A DNA stretch of 23,928 bases from a virus (Duplodnaviria > Heunggongvirae > Uroviricota > Caudoviricetes): positions 1 to 23,928 of IMG/VR virus record IMGVR_UViG_2913123054_000001, one strand, 5' to 3'. Numbering within the stretch: the first letter of the stretch is position 1; each line of letters opens with the position of its first letter. Of this stretch, positions 5,117 to 18,642 are shown in pieces. The translations under genes were made by a program, and so were the position numbers. The notes beneath the pieces were generated by a model. That model saw only the letters and a program-made list of their open reading frames with translations. It had not been told where the DNA came from and did no database searches.

Positions 5117-6485
5117 TCCGGCTTTACGTAGTTTCTGGACTACGCGGGCACGTAACAAAGTGCTTTATGGTGGCCGGTCATCGTCAAAATCATGGGATGC
5201 CGCTGGCATTGCCATATTTCTGTCGAATAAATACACCCTGCGTTTTTGTTGTGCCCGTCAGATCCAGAACAAAATCGAAGAGTCGGTGTATACCCTGCTC
5301 AAAATTCAGATAGACAGGTTTGGCCTGCGGCACCGTTTCCGTATTCTGAACAACAAAATCATTAACCGGGTTACTGGCTCGGAATTTGTTTTTTATGGAT
5401 TATGGCGCAACATCGAAGAAATTAAGTCACTGGAGGGGATCGATGTGTTGTGGCTGGAAGAAGCCCACGCACTGACGGAATACCAGTGGAAAATTCTGGA
5501 GCCAACGATCCGTAAAGAGGGTTCGGAATGCTGGTTCATATTCAACCCCGGACTTGTTACTGATTTTGTCTGGCGCAACTTTGTTGTTGATCCGCCTGAA
5601 GGCACTCTCATCCGCAAAATTAACTATGACGAAAATCCGTTTCTGTCTGACACCATGCTTAAGGTTATCGACGCGGCGCGACGTCGTGATCCGGATGGTT
5701 TTAAACATGTGTATGAGGGCGTTCCGGAGTCTGATGATGATGCGGCAATCATCAAACTGTCCTGGATAGAAGCCGCAGTGGATGCGCACAAAACGTTAAA
5801 TTTCGAACCCAGTGGAAGAAAGCGTATTGGCTTTGACGTGGCTGACAGTGGTACAGATAAGTGCGCTAACGTTTACCGTCACGGATCCGTTGTTTTCTGG
5901 GCCGACGAATGGAAGGCCAAAGAAGATGAATTACTGAAGAGCTGCCAGCGTACTTATCAGGCGGCGCTGGAGCGTGAAGCAGATATTGTTTACGACTCTA
6001 TCGGTGTTGGTGCGTCTGCCGGTGCTAAATTCTCTGAAATTAACGCTGACCGGAAGAGCGAGAATGCATACGCGAGACGTGTGAATTACCAGAGGTTTAA
6101 CGCCGGTGCTGGTGTGCATGAGCCAGATGACGAATACAACGGCATCCCCAACAAAGACTTTTTCGCAAATCTTAAGGCTCAGGCATGGTGGCTGGTGGCT
6201 GACCGTTTCAGAAATACGTTTAACGCCATTAACAACGGAGAACAGTATCCTGTGGATGAGCTGATCAGCATAGATTCTCGTTGTCCGTTGCTTGAAAAGC
6301 TGAAACTGGAACTGACAACACCTCATCGCGATTTTGACCGTAACGGACGTGTGATGGTCGAAAGTAAAAAAGACCTCGCAAAACGCGAGATACCGTCACC
6401 AAACGTTGCTGACGCATTCATTATGGCCTTCGCGCCAATTGATACATCGCTGGATATCTGGGAACAGCTGGGGAGACAGGCCTGA
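5082..6485 (+). CDS. Terminase large subunit (ATPase/nuclease)
   Basis: Long ORF with Walker A-like GGRSSSKSWD and Walker B-like VLWLEEAH motifs. Start uncertain: in-frame ATGs at 5055, 5058, 5064 and 5082; 5082 chosen for GGAGAG 10 nt upstream. Stop overlaps the portal start (TGATG). Confidence 0.85.
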   Translation: MTSTLTSKPTLNPALRSFWTTRARNKVLYGGRSSSKSWDAAGIAIFLSNKYTLRFCCARQIQNKIEESVYTLLKIQIDRFGLRHRFRILNNKIINRVTGSEFVFYGLWRNIEEIKSLEGIDVLWLEEAHALTEYQWKILEPTIRKEGSECWFIFNPGLVTDFVWRNFVVDPPEGTLIRKINYDENPFLSDTMLKVIDAARRRDPDGFKHVYEGVPESDDDAAIIKLSWIEAAVDAHKTLNFEPSGRKRIGFDVADSGTDKCANVYRHGSVVFWADEWKAKEDELLKSCQRTYQAALEREADIVYDSIGVGASAGAKFSEINADRKSENAYARRVNYQRFNAGAGVHEPDDEYNGIPNKDFFANLKAQAWWLVADRFRNTFNAINNGEQYPVDELISIDSRCPLLEKLKLELTTPHRDFDRNGRVMVESKKDLAKREIPSPNVADAFIMAFAPIDTSLDIWEQLGRQA

Positions 6486-7951
6486 TGGCACGAAACAAAC
6501 AAGCCCTGCGGCGAACTGCGCAGGCCACAGCTGATGGTTATGAGAATTTTATTGCCCGCGTAGGGATGCAGACACCTAACCAGCACTCAGCATCCACCTA
6601 CCGGGCTAATTTCACCAGTCGTAACCGCATGCTGGTGGAATGGTCCTATCGTTCGTCCTGGATCATCGGCGAAGCAGTCGATGCTATCCCGGATGATATG
6701 ACCCGCAAAGGCATTCGCATCACTTCGGAAATTGATGCAAAAGATCGTGGCATTCTCGAATCACAACTGGATGAGTTGCAAATCTGGGATGCGCTGAATG
6801 ACGTGCTGAAATGGTCGCGCCTCTACGGCGGCGCGGTGGGTTTCATCATGATTGAGGGGCAGGCACCAATGACCCCGCTGCGACCCGAAACCATCGGTAA
6901 GGGCAAGTTTAAGGGGATTCTCCCGCTCGACCGCTGGATGATCGACCCGGTACTGACCCGCCGCATTAAAGATATGGGGCCGGACCTGGGTAAACCTGAG
7001 TTTTACGATGTGGTGACCACAGCAACGGGAATTCCTGCCTGGCGCATTCATCACAGTCGACTGATTCGCTTTGATGGCGTCACGCTGCCATTTCAGCAGA
7101 AGATGACCGAGAACGAATGGGGAATGTCGGTTGTAGAGCGTATCTGGGATCGTCTTACCGCGTTCGACAGCGCTACTGTCGGCGCGGCGCAGCTGGTCTA
7201 CAAGGCTCATCTACGTACCTACAGCGTGGAGAAGCTACGTGAGCTTATCGCACTTGGTGGTCCTGCGTATGAAGCGTTGCTGAAGAATATCGACCTGATT
7301 CGACAGTTCCAGAGTAATGAAGGCATGACGCTCATGGACTCGCGGGATAAGTTTGAAACCCATCAGTACAGCTTCAGTGGTCTGGATGACATCCTTTCGC
7401 AGTTTGCAGAACAGATTAGTGGCGCTGTTGGTATCCCACTGGTGAGGTTGTTCGGACAGTCCCCGAAAGGATTTTCTACCGGTGATGCAGACCTTGCCAA
7501 CTATTACGACCGGGTAAGCTCATTGCAGGAGAGGCGTTTACGTCTTCCGGTGCGGCGGATACTGGACATCATGCATCGTTCGGAGCTTGGCAAGCCGCTG
7601 CCGGACGATTTCACGTTTGAGTTTAACCCGCTCTGGCAAATGTCTGATGTCGATCGTTCAACGGTGGCGTTAAATACCACCAACGCAATCAGTACAGCGC
7701 TGGGTGATGGTCTGATGACACTGAAAGCCGCTATGACTGATTTGCGCGAAAATTCTGACGTAACCGGCATCGGGGCATCCATTACCGACGAGGACATAGA
7801 GAATGCCGAAGACGAAGCGCCGCCCGGCATCGGCGAACCTGATGACGAACCGCAGGAACCGTCAGGCGGAAATCCGGTATCGAACCAGCCTACGCAGGAT
7901 AGCGCGGGCGGTCGGGGACATCGTAAATGGTCACTACGATGGTTCAAATGA
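6485..7951 (+). CDS. Portal protein (DUF1073-like)
   Basis: 488 aa immediately after the large terminase, translationally coupled; size and position typical of a portal; acidic C-terminus. Confidence 0.8.
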   Translation: MARNKQALRRTAQATADGYENFIARVGMQTPNQHSASTYRANFTSRNRMLVEWSYRSSWIIGEAVDAIPDDMTRKGIRITSEIDAKDRGILESQLDELQIWDALNDVLKWSRLYGGAVGFIMIEGQAPMTPLRPETIGKGKFKGILPLDRWMIDPVLTRRIKDMGPDLGKPEFYDVVTTATGIPAWRIHHSRLIRFDGVTLPFQQKMTENEWGMSVVERIWDRLTAFDSATVGAAQLVYKAHLRTYSVEKLRELIALGGPAYEALLKNIDLIRQFQSNEGMTLMDSRDKFETHQYSFSGLDDILSQFAEQISGAVGIPLVRLFGQSPKGFSTGDADLANYYDRVSSLQERRLRLPVRRILDIMHRSELGKPLPDDFTFEFNPLWQMSDVDRSTVALNTTNAISTALGDGLMTLKAAMTDLRENSDVTGIGASITDEDIENAEDEAPPGIGEPDDEPQEPSGGNPVSNQPTQDSAGGRGHRKWSLRWFK

Positions 7952-8576
7952 CAGTATCACGGAAATTATTGAGGCGCTGGAACGCTACAGTGAAATCATC
8001 ACCCCCTGGGCGATAAAGGTCGCGGAAAACTTTACCGCCGACATTGTGCGCAAGAATGATGAGCAGTGGCGTAAACACAGCAAAACCATCAGCCGTGAGC
8101 TACGCAATCTGGTAAACAGTGCCCCTCCAGGGCAGGTGATGAAATCCATCGTTGCCGAACAGGTTAAGTACATTAAATCGCTACCCCTCGAGGCGGCTGA
8201 CAGGGTGTACGACATCCAGAATCGGGCGATTGAAGCTGTTGTGACCGGTGGGAGAGCGGAACATTTTGCTAAAGAAATAGCTGCATCGGGTGATATAGCA
8301 AAGTCCAGAGCTGACCTGATTGCCCGTACTGAACTTGGACGTGCAACCGGCGCGCTGGATCAGGCGCGTGCGCTGTCAATTGGTTCGAATGGTTATATCT
8401 GGCGTACAGCCGAAGATGGTGACGTCAGGCATTCTCATCGGGAAATGGAAGGTAAATTTGTCGAATGGGGCAAACCTCCAACGCTTGATGGCATGACAGG
8501 TCACGCTGGCGAGTTCCCGAATTGTCGCTGTTATAAAGAAATCGTTTTTCCCACCTCCCATTCTTATCCCGCCTGA
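7803..8576 (+). CDS. Head morphogenesis protein, phage Mu F-like (minor capsid protein)
   Basis: 257 aa following the portal, with a C-terminal Cys-containing region (GEFPNCRCYKEI). Start at 7803 gives a 149-nt overlap with the portal; ATG at 7842 is an alternative. Confidence 0.7.
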   Translation: MPKTKRRPASANLMTNRRNRQAEIRYRTSLRRIARAVGDIVNGHYDGSNDSITEIIEALERYSEIITPWAIKVAENFTADIVRKNDEQWRKHSKTISRELRNLVNSAPPGQVMKSIVAEQVKYIKSLPLEAADRVYDIQNRAIEAVVTGGRAEHFAKEIAASGDIAKSRADLIARTELGRATGALDQARALSIGSNGYIWRTAEDGDVRHSHREMEGKFVEWGKPPTLDGMTGHAGEFPNCRCYKEIVFPTSHSYPA

Positions 8577-13534: not shown

Positions 13535-14680
13535 ATGGCACAGGGCTTGCCTGTATCAAACGTTGTTAATGTTGATGTGATCATGTCGCCGCGTGCAGCA
13601 TCAGGGCGAAATTTTGGTGCATTACTCATTCTCGGCCCGTCCACAATCATTCCGGTAAGTGAGCGCATTCGTCGTTATTCTGCCGCGGAAGATATTGGAA
13701 AAGATTTTGGCGTGGAATCACCAGAATATAAAGCTGCGCAGGTGTTTTTCTCACAATCACCGAAACCTCAGGAGGTTTTTGTTGGTCGTTGGGTGAAAAC
13801 GAAGGGAGACAGCGAACAGGCCACGCCTGAGACGCTGGAGCAGGCTGTGAATGCCATGCTTGATTATACTTCATGGTATGGGCTGGGGATTGCAGACGAT
13901 GAAGATATTCCGGATGCAGACTGGCTGAAAGTGGCTGCGGCGATCGAATCCTCTTCTGTAAGCCGTATTCTGGCGATTACGACAAGCGATGATAAATGCC
14001 TGCAGACTGCATCCAGCGATGATTTGGCATCAAAACTGAAAAATGCCGGATATTCACGCAGTTTTATTCAGTATTCATCGGGTAATAAATACGCTGCGTT
14101 ATCTGCATTTGGCCGGGCATTCACGGTTAATTTCAATGGCAGTAATACCGCGATTACGCTCAAGTTTAAGCAGGAGCCGGGTGTCGGGTATGAAACACTG
14201 ACAGTCAGCCAGGCATCGGCACTTGATGCAAAAAACTGCAATGTATTCGTGTACTACCAGAATGATACGGCTATCCTCCAGCAGGGAGTGATGGCTAACG
14301 GCGATTTCTTTGATGAACGCCACGGCCTGGACTGGTTACAGAATTATGTGCAGACCAACCTCTATAACCTGCTTTATACCAGCACCACGAAAGTTCCCCA
14401 GACTGAAGCCGGTATTACCCGACTGTTATCAAATGTTGAAAAATCACTGGATCAGGCCGTTCAGAATGGACTGATTGCTCCGGGCGTATGGAACGGGGGC
14501 GACCTTGGTCAGTTGTCATCAGGTGACACACTGCCCAAAGGTTATTACGTATACGCCCAGCCGCTGGATGAACAGGCACAATCAGAACGTGAAGCCCGTA
14601 AGGCTCCGGTGATTCAGGCTGCAATAAAACTTGCAGGCGCGGTTCATTACGCTGACGTACAGATTAACGTTGTTCGCTAA
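13535..14680 (+). CDS. Tail sheath protein (DUF3383-like)
   Basis: 381-aa ORF directly upstream of the tube and chaperone/tape measure genes; size and position typical of a contractile sheath. Confidence 0.75.
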
Positions 14681-14690
14681 GGGGAAGTGA

Positions 14691-15131
14691 ATGTCTACCT
14701 ATTCTTTTATGGATGTCACTGCGACGCTGACCGGGCCGACCGGTTCGATTGACCTCGGGTACGGTTCTGCAAGTTCTGAAGAGGGGATTGTGGTTGCGAT
14801 GGGCGGTCCTAAAAACACCATGACCATCGGTGCTGATGGTGAAGTAATGCACAGTCTCCATGCAGATAAAAGCGGGACGATTACCGTTAACCTTCTGAAG
14901 ACATCACCGACAAATAAAAAATTGTCGCTGGCGTATAACGCACAGAGCCAGTCTTCTGCCACATGGGGGAATAACGTTATCGTGATTCGCAACAAGGTCA
15001 GCGGCGACATCATCACGGCACGCAGTGTTGCGTTCCAGAAACAACCGGATAACGCCAACGCTAAAACCGGTAATACGATGCCGTGGGTGTTTGACTGCGG
15101 CAAGATTGACCAGGTTCTCGGGGAGTTTTAA
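14691..15131 (+). CDS. Tail tube protein (DUF3277-like)
   Basis: 146-aa ORF between sheath and tail chaperone; GGGGAAG RBS. Confidence 0.75.
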   Translation: MSTYSFMDVTATLTGPTGSIDLGYGSASSEEGIVVAMGGPKNTMTIGADGEVMHSLHADKSGTITVNLLKTSPTNKKLSLAYNAQSQSSATWGNNVIVIRNKVSGDIITARSVAFQKQPDNANAKTGNTMPWVFDCGKIDQVLGEF

Positions 15132-15134
15132 TAC

Positions 15135-15587
15135 ATGGAATTCGAAATTAAAGGCGTGAAATATCGCGCGGCAAAACTCAGCGTTTTTGACCAGCTGAAA
15201 GTGACCCGCAAACTTCTGCCGGTACTGGCGGGAATGATGTCAGATTTCGGGAGTATTCGCTCCCGTTTGCCTGCTGATGGCAAAATCGACACCGTGAAAT
15301 TCGAGCAGTTAAAACCGGTGTTTGAAACCATGCTCCCGCGTATCGCTGAGGAACTGTCTTCCCTGACCGAAGATGACACCGATGCGATTATTCATCCCTG
15401 TCTTGCGGTGGTGTCGCGGCGTCATATGGACGGATGGGTGCCGGTATTTAGCCAGGGCGAACTGATGTTTGATGATATTGACCTGCTGGTCATGCTGCAG
15501 ATGGTGGCGCGGGTGGTCGCCGATTCGCTGGGAAATTTTTTGCAAGGACTCCCTATCAAAGAGACGCCCATCCCGCCAGCGGAATAA
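15135..15587 (+). CDS. Tail assembly chaperone (short, in-frame product)
   Basis: 150-aa ORF immediately upstream of the tape measure; contains slippery heptamer T_TTT_TTG and an open -1 frame extending to 15784. Confidence 0.75.
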   Translation: MEFEIKGVKYRAAKLSVFDQLKVTRKLLPVLAGMMSDFGSIRSRLPADGKIDTVKFEQLKPVFETMLPRIAEELSSLTEDDTDAIIHPCLAVVSRRHMDGWVPVFSQGELMFDDIDLLVMLQMVARVVADSLGNFLQGLPIKETPIPPAE

Positions 15588-15784
15588 CCTTCAATAGCCT
15601 GCCGGGTGGTGAAGATTTTATTCTTCGTCCGGCGCTTGCCTTCCATATTGACCAGAAAGATCTTAACAGTGGTGCGGTAGATCTCTGTCGCATCGCGCTT
15701 CTTAATGACTACCTTGATATGTGCGAGGACAACGATGTCCGGGTAGAAAAATGGAGAGAGGATAATGAACGCCGAGACTATTAA
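15135..15784 (+). CDS. Tail assembly chaperone, predicted -1 frameshift-extended isoform (about 216 aa)
   Basis: Joining frame 0 (15135-15542) to the -1 frame (to stop at 15782-15784) gives an extension with no stop codons; mirrors the G/GT arrangement upstream of tape measure genes. Confidence 0.5.
15536..15542 (+). promoter_or_regulatory. Candidate -1 programmed ribosomal frameshift site (slippery heptamer T_TTT_TTG)
   Basis: Zero-frame codons AAT TTT TTG; the -1 frame is open from 15452 to a TAA at 15782-15784, overlapping the tape measure start. Confidence 0.55.
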
Positions 15785-17753
15785 AGATTTCCTCGTCTCG
15801 CTTGGCTTCAGTGTGGATGATGCAGGAGCGAAAAAATTCGGTTCTGTCCTCGCCGGTACAACTGCAAATGTCATCAAAATGGGGCTGGCCGTCGAAGGAA
15901 CTGCTCTGTCCGTGGTGGCCTTCACGGCTAAGATCGCCTCCGGTCTGGATAATCTTTACTGGGCGTCACAGCGCACCGGCGCGACAGTCCAGGGAATTCA
16001 GTCTATTGGCTATGCGGTTTCGCAGGTTGGCGGCAGCGTGGACGCTGCGCGATCTTCTCTGGAAAACCTCTCCCGGTTTATTCGTAATAATCCCGGGGCG
16101 GAGGGATTTCTGAATCGTCTGGGGGTACAGACACGGGATGCCAGCGGTAACATGCGTGACATGGCCGCTATTTTTACAGGGGTAGGCCAGAAGCTCAGCG
16201 ACATGCCGTATTACCGTGCTAACCAGTATGCGCAGATGCTGGGCATTGACGAAAATACCCTGATGGCTGTGCGTCGCGGTGTGGGTGGCTTCTCCGGGCA
16301 GTACAGCGCAATGGCGAAAGCTATCGGCTTCAATGCTGACGAGGCGGCCAGAAGCTCCAACAAATTTATGACCTCCCTGCGTGAGTTTGGCGCGATGGCA
16401 GGCATGGCCCGTGACAAAATCGGCTCTAATCTTGCGGGTGGGCTTGCGGGTTCGCTGGACACTCTGCGCCGCCATATCCTGGACAACTTCCCGCGTATCG
16501 AGCAGACCCTGACGAAAGCTATAAAAGGCATTCTGGCGCTCGGGGATATTATCGGGCGGTTGTTCTTCAGACTGATTGAGGGGACATCAGGCCTCATCAC
16601 CTGGTGGCAATCGCTGGATAAGCAAACGCGGGAGTTGATCTCGCTGTTTGGCGCACTGACGATTGCGCTGCGCATTCTGAACAGTACGTTCTGGATGTCG
16701 CCGATTGGCCTCATTACCGCGCTGGCGGCGGGGATTGCCCTCCTGTGGGAGGACTATCAGACCTGGAAGGAAGGCGGCGACAGCCTGATTGACTGGGGCA
16801 AGTGGAAACCGGAGGTTGATGCCGCGCTGAAGATGGTTCGTGACCTTAAAACGACCGTTAACGACCTGGTGAAAGCGCTGGCGAAACTGCTCAATATTGA
16901 CCCCAAATCATGGTCCCTGAAGTGGGATTTCAGCAACTTCATCGACCAGATGGGCGAATTCAGCAAAATGCTGAACATGATCGCCGACCTGCTCAACGCT
17001 ATCAAAGATGGCCGCTGGGCTGATGCCGTCAGCATCGGCAAACAGATACTTAATCAGGGCAGCGAAAATCCGTCAGCGATGCCGATGGTTACAGACAGCG
17101 CTAACAGTACTGCCGACTGGATTAAAGAGCACTGGGGATTTGATCCCCGCAGTGTGGGCCGGACGGTACGCGGCTGGTTTGGTGATGATGAGCCGGAACA
17201 ACATGCACAGGCTACGAAACGAGGAGAACGGAATAACAATCCGGGAAATCTTAATTTTGCTGGTCAGGCTGGGGCTTCTCTTGAACGCCCGGGCGGGCGA
17301 TTTGCCAGATTTGAAACTGCTTTTGATGGATTACGGGCTCTTGCTCGTCAGTTAATGCTGTACGCCGGACGGGGAATAAACAGTGTGGAGAAAATTATCT
17401 CTACCTGGGCACCTGCGTCTGATAATAACAACACAACCGCGTATATCAGGGCTGTATCGCAACGACTGGGAGTGGATCCCCGGGCTGCCCTGAATATGAG
17501 CGATCCGCAAACCATGTCAGCATTGATGAGCAGCATTATCCAGCATGAGAATGGAAGAAATATCTATTCTCGAGAGCTGATTAATAAGGCTGCCGTGGCG
17601 GGAATTAGTGGCAAAGTGACAGAGGTTAACCAGCAAAATACCTACCACATTTACGGTGGCGGAGATCCGCACGCTGTCGGTAATGAGGTTGCACGTCGGC
17701 AACAGTCTGCAAATGCTCAGGTCATGCGAAGTAATCAGGTGAGGGTGAGTTAG
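15765..17753 (+). CDS. Tail tape measure protein (662 aa) with a distinct C-terminal domain
   Basis: Long Ala/Gly/Leu-rich helical ORF after the chaperone pair, RBS GGAGAGAGG; C-terminal about 150 aa (NNNPGNLNF...FETAFDGLRALARQLMLYAGRG...) looks like a separate globular domain. Confidence 0.8.
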   Translation: MNAETIKDFLVSLGFSVDDAGAKKFGSVLAGTTANVIKMGLAVEGTALSVVAFTAKIASGLDNLYWASQRTGATVQGIQSIGYAVSQVGGSVDAARSSLENLSRFIRNNPGAEGFLNRLGVQTRDASGNMRDMAAIFTGVGQKLSDMPYYRANQYAQMLGIDENTLMAVRRGVGGFSGQYSAMAKAIGFNADEAARSSNKFMTSLREFGAMAGMARDKIGSNLAGGLAGSLDTLRRHILDNFPRIEQTLTKAIKGILALGDIIGRLFFRLIEGTSGLITWWQSLDKQTRELISLFGALTIALRILNSTFWMSPIGLITALAAGIALLWEDYQTWKEGGDSLIDWGKWKPEVDAALKMVRDLKTTVNDLVKALAKLLNIDPKSWSLKWDFSNFIDQMGEFSKMLNMIADLLNAIKDGRWADAVSIGKQILNQGSENPSAMPMVTDSANSTADWIKEHWGFDPRSVGRTVRGWFGDDEPEQHAQATKRGERNNNPGNLNFAGQAGASLERPGGRFARFETAFDGLRALARQLMLYAGRGINSVEKIISTWAPASDNNNTTAYIRAVSQRLGVDPRAALNMSDPQTMSALMSSIIQHENGRNIYSRELINKAAVAGISGKVTEVNQQNTYHIYGGGDPHAVGNEVARRQQSANAQVMRSNQVRVS

Positions 17754-18340
17754 TGGATATTCTCTCTACACTTTTTCATCAGCAGAGCAGAAAAATAGGA
17801 ATGATTGTTCCCAGTGTTGTTATTTCAGAGAAGCATACAGATATGCTTGAAATAACCGAGCATCCGGTAGAAGTCGGGGCCGCTGTCGCTGATCATGCCT
17901 ATAAAAAACCGTCAGAAGTGGTGATGGAGGTTGGTTTCGCCGGTGGCGGCGCATTGCTGGATTTTGCCAGTAATCTGACGGCTACCAGCCTGCTCGGCCT
18001 GAGTCCTCAGCAGACGTATCAGGAGCTACTGGATCTGCAGGAAAGCCGTATCCCCTTCGATGTGGTAACCGGTAAACGGCTGTACAGCAACATGTTGATC
18101 CGGGCGCTGGAAGTGACGACGGACAAGACAACCGAAAACGTCCTGTCCGCCGTCCTCACCCTGAGGGAGGTCATTATCTCCCGGACACAGCAGATTACCG
18201 TCGCGGATAAAACCAACATGAAGGAAGGGGCCAGCACGTCGGCGGTACAGAACAGCGGCAACAAAACCACAAAGCCTCCAGATACTTCACTGCTGAAAAG
18301 CATCACGGGTAACGTGGCGTCATTACTGGGGGGCGGCTAA
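17753..18340 (+). CDS. Baseplate/tail protein (195 aa; possibly DNA-circularisation-like or tail-tip protein)
   Basis: ORF translationally coupled to the tape measure (stop/start overlap); position only. Confidence 0.5.
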   Translation: MDILSTLFHQQSRKIGMIVPSVVISEKHTDMLEITEHPVEVGAAVADHAYKKPSEVVMEVGFAGGGALLDFASNLTATSLLGLSPQQTYQELLDLQESRIPFDVVTGKRLYSNMLIRALEVTTDKTTENVLSAVLTLREVIISRTQQITVADKTNMKEGASTSAVQNSGNKTTKPPDTSLLKSITGNVASLLGGG

Positions 18341-18642
18341 TGACAATTCAGGAAATTCCGCTGACAGCGGACAACCAGCAGTTCAGCATCGTCCTGGGTG
18401 GTGTCACCTGGCGGATTAGCATCATATGGCGCGATCTGTACTGGATTATGGACCTGCAGAACGACAGAGGGGAGCCGGTAATCTCCGGTATTCCTCTTGT
18501 CACTGGTGCTGACCTGCTGGCGCAGTACGCCTGTATGGGGCTTGGTTTTAAGCTGGTGGTGGTCTGTGATGACAACACACAGGATTACCCCACAAAAACT
18601 GACCTGGGCGGTCGCAGCCATTTACTGGTATCAACGGAGTAA
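18340..18642 (+). CDS. Small baseplate/tail protein (100 aa)
   Basis: ORF overlapping the upstream stop (TAATG); position between tape measure and hub. Confidence 0.5.
   Translation: MTIQEIPLTADNQQFSIVLGGVTWRISIIWRDLYWIMDLQNDRGEPVISGIPLVTGADLLAQYACMGLGFKLVVVCDDNTQDYPTKTDLGGRSHLLVSTE

Follow-up and report, generated by a model that had tools for sequence, protein, structure and literature searches.

According to our analysis, positions 15135 to 15784 of the window, by which we mean the whole 23,928-nucleotide stretch of prophage DNA studied here, very probably hold a G/GT-type -1 programmed frameshift of the tail assembly chaperone, a reading built on sequence comparison. A small fraction of the ribosomes translating the chaperone gene would slip back by one nucleotide within the run G_GGA_AAT_TTT_TTG (15530-15542) and would then read the -1 frame for 80 codons up to the TAA at 15782-84. 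The predicted products are a 216-amino acid (aa) fusion, consisting of chaperone residues 1-136 and a DUF6889 domain, beside the 150-aa frame-0 chaperone, with masses of 24 and 16.6 kDa, respectively, and the shift is expected to occur at a low percentage. The initial annotation of this DNA had taken the locus for the conserved G/GT-type frameshift of tailed phages, and this proposal is supported by the identity and position of the gene, the coding status of the -1 frame, the conserved run, an extension devoid of a start of its own, and the presence of annotated homologues.

The chaperone gene and its -1 frame

The frame-0 product matches the Pfam family Phage_TAC_15 (PF21822) at E=2e-30 (106.2 bits, with a gathering cutoff of 22) and phrog_1688, "tail assembly chaperone," at E=2e-63. 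The gene lies between those for the tube and the tape measure, as in G/GT-type pairs, and the sheath gene stands upstream of the tube gene. The features of the locus are listed below.

15135..15587, + strand: tail assembly chaperone, frame-0 product of 150 aa (Phage_TAC_15, phrog_1688)
15530..15542, + strand: slippery run GGGAAATTTTTTG, 13 nt, with three overlapping in-phase heptamers
15530-36, + strand: G_GGA_AAT, first heptamer of the run
15533-39, + strand: A_AAT_TTT, second heptamer of the run
15536-42, + strand: T_TTT_TTG, third and last heptamer of the run
15542..15784, + strand: -1 extension, 80 codons plus TAA, which together with 15135..15542 gives the 216-aa fusion
15653..15766, + strand: DUF6889 domain in the extension (Pfam PF21829), fusion residues 174-211

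Frame 0 of the open reading frame (ORF) 15135..15587 reads ...CTG GGA AAT TTT TTG CAA..., and since its codons fall as GGA AAT TTT TTG, TTTTTTG at 15536-15542 is an in-phase heptamer of the X_XXY_YYZ type. The initial annotation had noted T_TTT_TTG close to the chaperone gene's 3' end, where it is indeed present and in phase, and had overlooked the two further heptamers in GGGAAATTTTTTG. It had also described the -1 frame as open from 15452, which does not hold: TGA triplets lie at 15470-72, 15473-75, and 15479-81, and the frame is open only from 15482, a late opening that is immaterial to a shift at 15536-42. The end of the frame had been correctly placed at the TAA of 15782-15784, overlapping the tape measure start and lying 20 nt inside the tape measure ORF. 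The figure of about 80 codons, instead, had been counted from the wrong point, since 80 codons separate the slip site from the TAA and only about 65 lie past the frame-0 stop at 15585-87.

We give next to no credence to the explanation according to which the -1 frame is open by chance, or the locus is a decaying gene split by a frameshift mutation. An 80-codon open frame would arise by chance with a probability of about 2% at 51% G+C, as estimated from a stop frequency of 3/64. However, the 31 plus-strand ORFs of the window, used as a control, hold 31 in-phase heptamers after which the -1 frame stays open for a median of 10 codons, while at the chaperone site 80 to 82 codons are open and the sole longer control case merely enters the next gene. 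Moreover, the extension matches a Pfam family. Different genera share the slip run, the frame-0 stop, and the layout in two frames, as do the 350 of 5426 complete E. coli genomes in which the tail module was found; chance and decay are ruled out by the comparative data.

A second candidate frameshift site, G_GGG_GGC at 18328-18334, is also in phase and was rejected. It stands one codon ahead of the stop of the Dit-like gene 17753..18340, and its -1 frame is the frame of the next gene, 18340..18642 (Pam3 gp18-like plug). Because the latter starts at an ATG of its own within a TAATG overlap, the simplest explanation of the G-run is that it serves as the ribosome-binding site of this gene.

Conservation and coding status of the extension

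The locus was compared with 12 relatives sharing 65-98% DNA identity with it in the chaperone region (68-99% over a wider query); they include E. coli prophages and phages, Klebsiella phages, Salmonella SEN34, Yersinia YP3, Citrobacter Omnitron, Hafnia yong1, and "Elizabethkingia" EKP1. This comparison with the chaperone pairs of related phages, which the initial annotation had indicated as a check, showed that both the slippery run and the openness of the -1 frame are kept in 12 of 12 relatives: GGGAAATTTTTTG is invariant and in phase in all of them, and the -1 frame is open from the run to a stop located 10-19 nt past the tape measure ATG, with conservation of the encoded peptide. The run is constrained at the nucleotide level, as TGGGAAATTTTTTG is the sole invariant stretch of at least 8 nt in the chaperone alignment, and the codons GGA AAT TTT TTG are all invariant, compared with 9.5% of the other codons for invariant residues (naive P of ~8e-5). 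In IMG/VR, the exact run is kept by 78 of 80 loci. The other two, the prophages L015 and L016, carry AGGAAATTTTTTG, where the change at the equivalent of position 15530 gives AGGAAAT and breaks G_GGA_AAT, while the other two heptamers and the extension are intact.

Distant relatives, with 25-40% identity, display differing motifs which are nonetheless in phase and at the same protein position (NLG-x-F), as follows.

Bordetella IFTN9: G_GGA_AAT only
Acinetobacter AbTJ: G_GGA_AAT and A_AAT_TTT
Burkholderia Magia and BgManors32: C_CCT_TTT
Ralstonia phage PY059YO380: G_GGT_TTT and T_TTT_TTC
Providencia PSTCR3: T_TTT_TTT
Burkholderia E192a and Edwardsiella ZHS: the tetramer T_TTT only

After the motif, these distant relatives feature a homologous extension, LPxGEDWLLRPV...DLADIALMND, which ends at the tape measure start.

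Judged from the sequence comparisons, the extension is clearly a coding sequence under selection at the protein level. When the fusion is put together in silico from residues 1-136 and the 80 residues of the -1 frame, it matches Pfam DUF6889 (PF21829) at E=2e-11 (43.9 bits, with a cutoff of 23.9); for the extension by itself, the match is to phrog_4364, at E=3e-17 and over extension residues 24-77. In the alignment of the relatives, pairwise differences at codon positions 1, 2, and 3 of the -1 frame amount to 0.26, 0.23, and 0.52, the third position thus differing about twice as often as the first and second, and the corresponding values for frame 0 of the chaperone are 0.22, 0.15, and 0.47. 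In the 15-codon stretch after the slip site where the two frames overlap, variation is greatest at the third position of the -1 frame. There, the -1 reading is the constrained one, with 64% amino acid identity, versus 37% for the frame-0 tail.

The initial annotation had remarked that the extension has no start of its own, and this is borne out: the sole in-frame ATG, GTG, or TTG is the ATG at 15719 (codon 60 of 80), which has no Shine-Dalgarno (SD) sequence and lies past most of the conserved domain, i.e., downstream of most of the DUF6889/phrog_4364 match. It is therefore very improbable that an internal start serves to translate the extension as a small gene in its own right, as annotated by RefSeq and in several phage records. 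Gene callers do give stubs of 27-79 aa in many genomes. However, among the relatives the first possible start falls anywhere between codons 20 and 60, with no start position conserved, the RefSeq stub begins at ATC, no promoter-like site was found in 14600-16000, and codons 1-59 of the extension, including the part overlapping the frame-0 tail, are under coding-type constraint. A phmmer search with the extension against 1.84 billion representative proteins retrieved only short stubs (27-79 aa) besides one chimeric assembly and artefacts caused by indels, and revealed neither a family of full-length stand-alone extension genes nor a natural in-frame fusion family.

The Edwardsiella phage vB_EpM_ZHS (L096, 1365-1574) speaks for such a separate gene, as it reads GAT TTT ATG, without a canonical heptamer, and an ATG-started ORF spans most of its DUF6889-like domain. 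In the ZHS lineage, the domain may be expressed separately, or the shift may take place at the tetramer.

No matches for the fusion protein were found among solved structures and in NCBIfam, and no mention of DUF6889 was found in our literature search. DUF6889 is likely to be the frameshift-encoded C-terminal domain of the Phage_TAC_15 chaperones, corresponding in function to lambda T and P2 E'.

The extension also differs from its surroundings in its pattern of identity. When Escherichia phage vB_EcoM-606R2 and E. coli CM2010-0578/1 are taken for comparison, identity is 97-99% over the tube gene and the part of the chaperone gene that precedes the slip site and 94-97% over the 5' end of the tape measure gene, while the intervening 222 nt (15543-15764) reach only 57%. 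In Citrobacter phage Omnitron, these 222 nt are matched at 90% identity, and the chaperone and tape measure at 69% and 64%, respectively. In IMG/VR, most chaperone matches end exactly at residue 136. By these identities, the extension 15543-15764 behaves as a cassette exchanged between phages.

Nature, site, and stimulation of the proposed shift

Several points weigh against the proposed frameshift. The case for this locus and its close homologues stands at the level of sequence and not of protein. The downstream stimulatory hairpin or pseudoknot which the initial annotation had pointed to as a thing to look for is not supported by folding, by consensus structure, or by Rfam, pseudoknots not having been searched for explicitly. 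The 90 nt downstream of the run fold no better than shuffled sequences (minimum free energy z=-0.71), the downstream z-scores in the 12 relatives range from -1.5 to +1.4 in 45- and 70-nt windows, the RNAalifold consensus over the 12 relatives reaches -2.1 kcal/mol with no covariation, and a search of Rfam at E values up to 10 gave no match. Furthermore, U_UU.U_UU.G and G_GG.A_AA.U fall outside the motif classes that are efficient in E. coli (PMC4066793), and since this holds for U_UU.U_UU.G, T_TTT_TTG may not be the main site. Finally, the T6 homopolymer at 15536-15541 could permit some transcriptional slippage.

As regards this last point, the fusion would arise if RNA polymerase added an extra U in the T6 run and the edited mRNA were then translated normally, an explanation which we deem improbable. 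The T-run is prone to indels at the DNA or assembly level, as seen in a Logan contig with T7 and in indels of other database entries. However, known programmed transcriptional slippage takes place on runs of about 8-9 nt or longer, and T6 is shorter than these. Transcriptional slippage as a subject is covered by the review PMC5009743. Moreover, distant relatives without any homopolymer longer than 4 nt (GGGAAATAC, CCCTTTTAT) still keep an X_XXY_YYZ motif, always in phase. Motifs that differ and yet are always in phase argue for tandem slippage of the ribosome and against transcriptional slippage, for which phase is irrelevant, and we infer the ribosomal nature of the shift from this pattern.

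The Logan contig (L094, SRR23924998, 1501-2142) is a case apart, in that its T7 yields an in-frame chaperone plus DUF6889 protein of 213 aa (P0001, in a cluster of 16 sequences) with the junction GNFFAYTP. It could represent a real mutant producing only the fusion or a homopolymer sequencing error.

The signal of the proposed ribosomal frameshift would consist of the slippery run itself, with no downstream RNA structure, as reported for P2 E/E+E', and the lack of a downstream structure here agrees with that report. Upstream of the run, a conserved block containing GGTGG may add SD-like stimulation.

15503..15523, + strand: upstream block ggtggcgcgggtggtcgccga, with GGTGG at 15503-07 and 15512-16, a candidate SD-like stimulator

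The ggtggcgcgggtggtcgccga block is nearly invariant at synonymous sites in the 13 sequences, with "cgggtgg" invariant in all 13. The codons of R126 and V127 are among only 8 invariant codons of the chaperone gene, 6 of which are found in its last 11 codons. GGNGG located 6-17 nt upstream of the motif stimulates -1 shifting and constitutes an experimental class (PMC4066793). In the window, the GGTGG at 15512-16 is invariant and its spacing to the three heptamers is 14, 17, and 20 nt. The sequence GGUGGUC is complementary to the 16S rRNA 3' end GAUCACC. The block and its GGTGG offer a lead for SD-like stimulation rather than a result, as their conservation may have other causes.

Which of the three heptamers would be used is a closer question. 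By the same mechanism, the productive shift could take place at A_AAT_TTT (15533-39) or G_GGA_AAT (15530-36) instead of T_TTT_TTG, and we regard this as possible, with slightly less than even credence. The alternatives differ by one residue at position 136, namely, ...GNFF/ART... (Phe) for the two earlier heptamers and ...GNFL/ART... (Leu) for T_TTT_TTG. The junction peptide VVADSLGNFLAR is predicted to mark a shift at T_TTT_TTG, and VVADSLGNFFAR is predicted to mark a shift at A_AAT_TTT or G_GGA_AAT. E. coli reporters place H_HH.U_UU.Y and R_RR.U_UU.Y among the efficient motifs (PMC4066793), which favours A_AAT_TTT. The same reporters rank the tetramers as A_AAG >> U_UUC > U_UUU, with U_UUG near background, U_UUY thus standing far above U_UUG as an A-site shifter (PMC4066793). 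An in-phase U_UUY at the conserved Phe codon is kept in every lineage examined and is the common denominator of the whole family, a heptamer ending at this codon being present in the window, in Acinetobacter AbTJ, in Burkholderia Magia and BgManors32, and in the Ralstonia phage; Bordetella IFTN9 has G_GGA_AAT as its sole heptamer. The GGTGG spacing is inside the stimulatory range for the earlier heptamers, and T_TTT_TTG lies beyond it.

On the other side, P2 in E. coli uses T_TTT_TTG, with the shift after G, and the only heptamer of Providencia PSTCR3 is aligned with the third one of the run. The first heptamer is dispensable, as shown by the two natural AGGAAAT variants, which break it and keep the extension intact. 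Since all 13 nt of the run are invariant, more than one site may contribute. With its three overlapping heptamers, the run is a handy natural system for finding out which motif is used by E. coli ribosomes in the absence of a stimulatory structure.

A broader proposal combines these elements. The invariant 13-nt run and the upstream GGTGG block would make up a composite, SD-assisted signal free of structure, at which ribosomes could shift in more than one place so that isoforms with Phe136 and with Leu136 would arise, and the same sequence would possibly be the left joint of the recombination cassette. We hold this proposal to be unlikely.

Gene neighbourhood, annotation, and known systems

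The window is a lambdoid-regulated, contractile-tailed (myovirus-type) E. coli prophage. Its genes encode a Q-like antiterminator, an endolysin, terminase, portal, a capsid protein, sheath, tube, and baseplate, and E. coli chromosomes match it at up to 99% identity. The genes flanking the chaperone gene are listed below.

13535..14680, + strand: sheath gene (phrog_205), upstream of the tube gene
14691..15131, + strand: tail tube gene (Pfam KPP10_Orf10/DUF3277, E=9e-61), directly upstream of the chaperone gene
15765..17753, + strand: tape measure protein gene, with ATG at 15765 (phrog_2276, "tail length tape measure protein," E=2e-281)

A region in the C-terminal third of the tape measure protein resembles lytic transglycosylases and matches phrog_873 and phrog_7182 (residues 474-650); in RefSeq, the entire protein is called "lytic transglycosylase." Elsewhere in the window, the Mu F-like ORF 7803-8576 overlaps the portal ORF 6485-7951 by 149 nt as listed, and its true start is probably a later codon.

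Automatic annotation misses the extension. RefSeq records start-less stubs of 30-54 aa named "DUF6889 family protein," among which the one at L002 2502-2594 (window 15692-15784) is 30 aa long and has ATC as its start codon. Other records carry the name "hypothetical protein," and in the Klebsiella prophage records MK448230 and MK416019 the equivalent stub is labelled "NTP pyrophosphohydrolase." The correct annotation model would be a single chaperone gene with a ribosomal-slippage isoform. Our literature search found no experimental study of the Phage_TAC_15/DUF6889 frameshift family.

The true homologues with a matching annotation are CPT_Mulock_014/015 of Klebsiella phage Mulock and gp16/gp15 of Burkholderia phage Magia, which have the same gene order and a homologous extension. 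In GenBank, both carry a "tape measure chaperone frameshift product" whose annotated ends coincide with the -1 stops that we computed, these annotations being predictions; the frameshift goes unmentioned in the paper on the Mulock genome. The chaperone of the window is 59% identical to that of Mulock and about 40% identical to that of Magia over the C-terminal half. The run of Mulock is identical to GGGAAATTTTTTG, whereas Magia has C_CCT_TTT, and the extension of the window is a divergent allele with 51% amino acid identity to that of Mulock.

P2 resembles the window in its host, E. coli, in its contractile tail, and in the order of its genes (sheath, tube, chaperone, tape measure). In PMC3091744 (citing Christie et al. 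2002; Xu, Hendrix & Duda 2004), the E/E+E' frameshift is assigned to TTTTTTG, with no downstream structure. In both phages, a start-less extension runs over the tape measure start, by 8 nt in P2 (gene T) and by 20 nt in the window. The likeness, including a T_TTT_TTG site without downstream structure, concerns a shared way of working and not family membership, as the proteins are not detectably related (BLASTP of the chaperones, E=0.47; hhalign of the extensions, 0.1% probability). The Pfam families are Phage_TAC_7 and Phage_P2_GpE (PF10109, PF06528) in P2 and Phage_TAC_15 and DUF6889 in the window. Furthermore, P2 reads GGT TTT TTG and has a single canonical heptamer where the window has three overlapping ones, and its extension is 57 codons long instead of 80.

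In lambda, as in the window, the chaperone gene lies between the major tail protein and tape measure genes, and a low-level -1 shift gives a C-terminally extended form, with a G:GT ratio of about 30:1 (PMC5009743). The lambda shift site is G_GGA_AAG, from which the first heptamer of the window, G_GGA_AAT, differs by one base, AAT being a poorer A-site shifter in E. coli than AAG. Unlike the window, lambda has a non-contractile tail, the Pfam families Phage_TAC_2 and Phage_tail_T, and a T region of 144 codons, which shows no profile similarity to the extension of the window (hhalign probability, 0.1%). By analogy with lambda gpG/gpGT, the tape measure protein would be coated by both chaperone forms, the rarer long form would recruit tube subunits via its extra domain, and the virion would retain neither form.

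E. coli dnaX and IS911/IS3 likewise rely on tandem slippage on X_XXY_YYZ, and the GGNGG-class sequence upstream of the run may be a further, SD-like parallel to them. However, they depend on a downstream hairpin or pseudoknot, and their signals reach efficiencies of up to tens of percent. Compared with these systems, the locus is a new, so far un-annotated member of the textbook G/GT-type class, which leaves the general picture of phage tail assembly unchanged.

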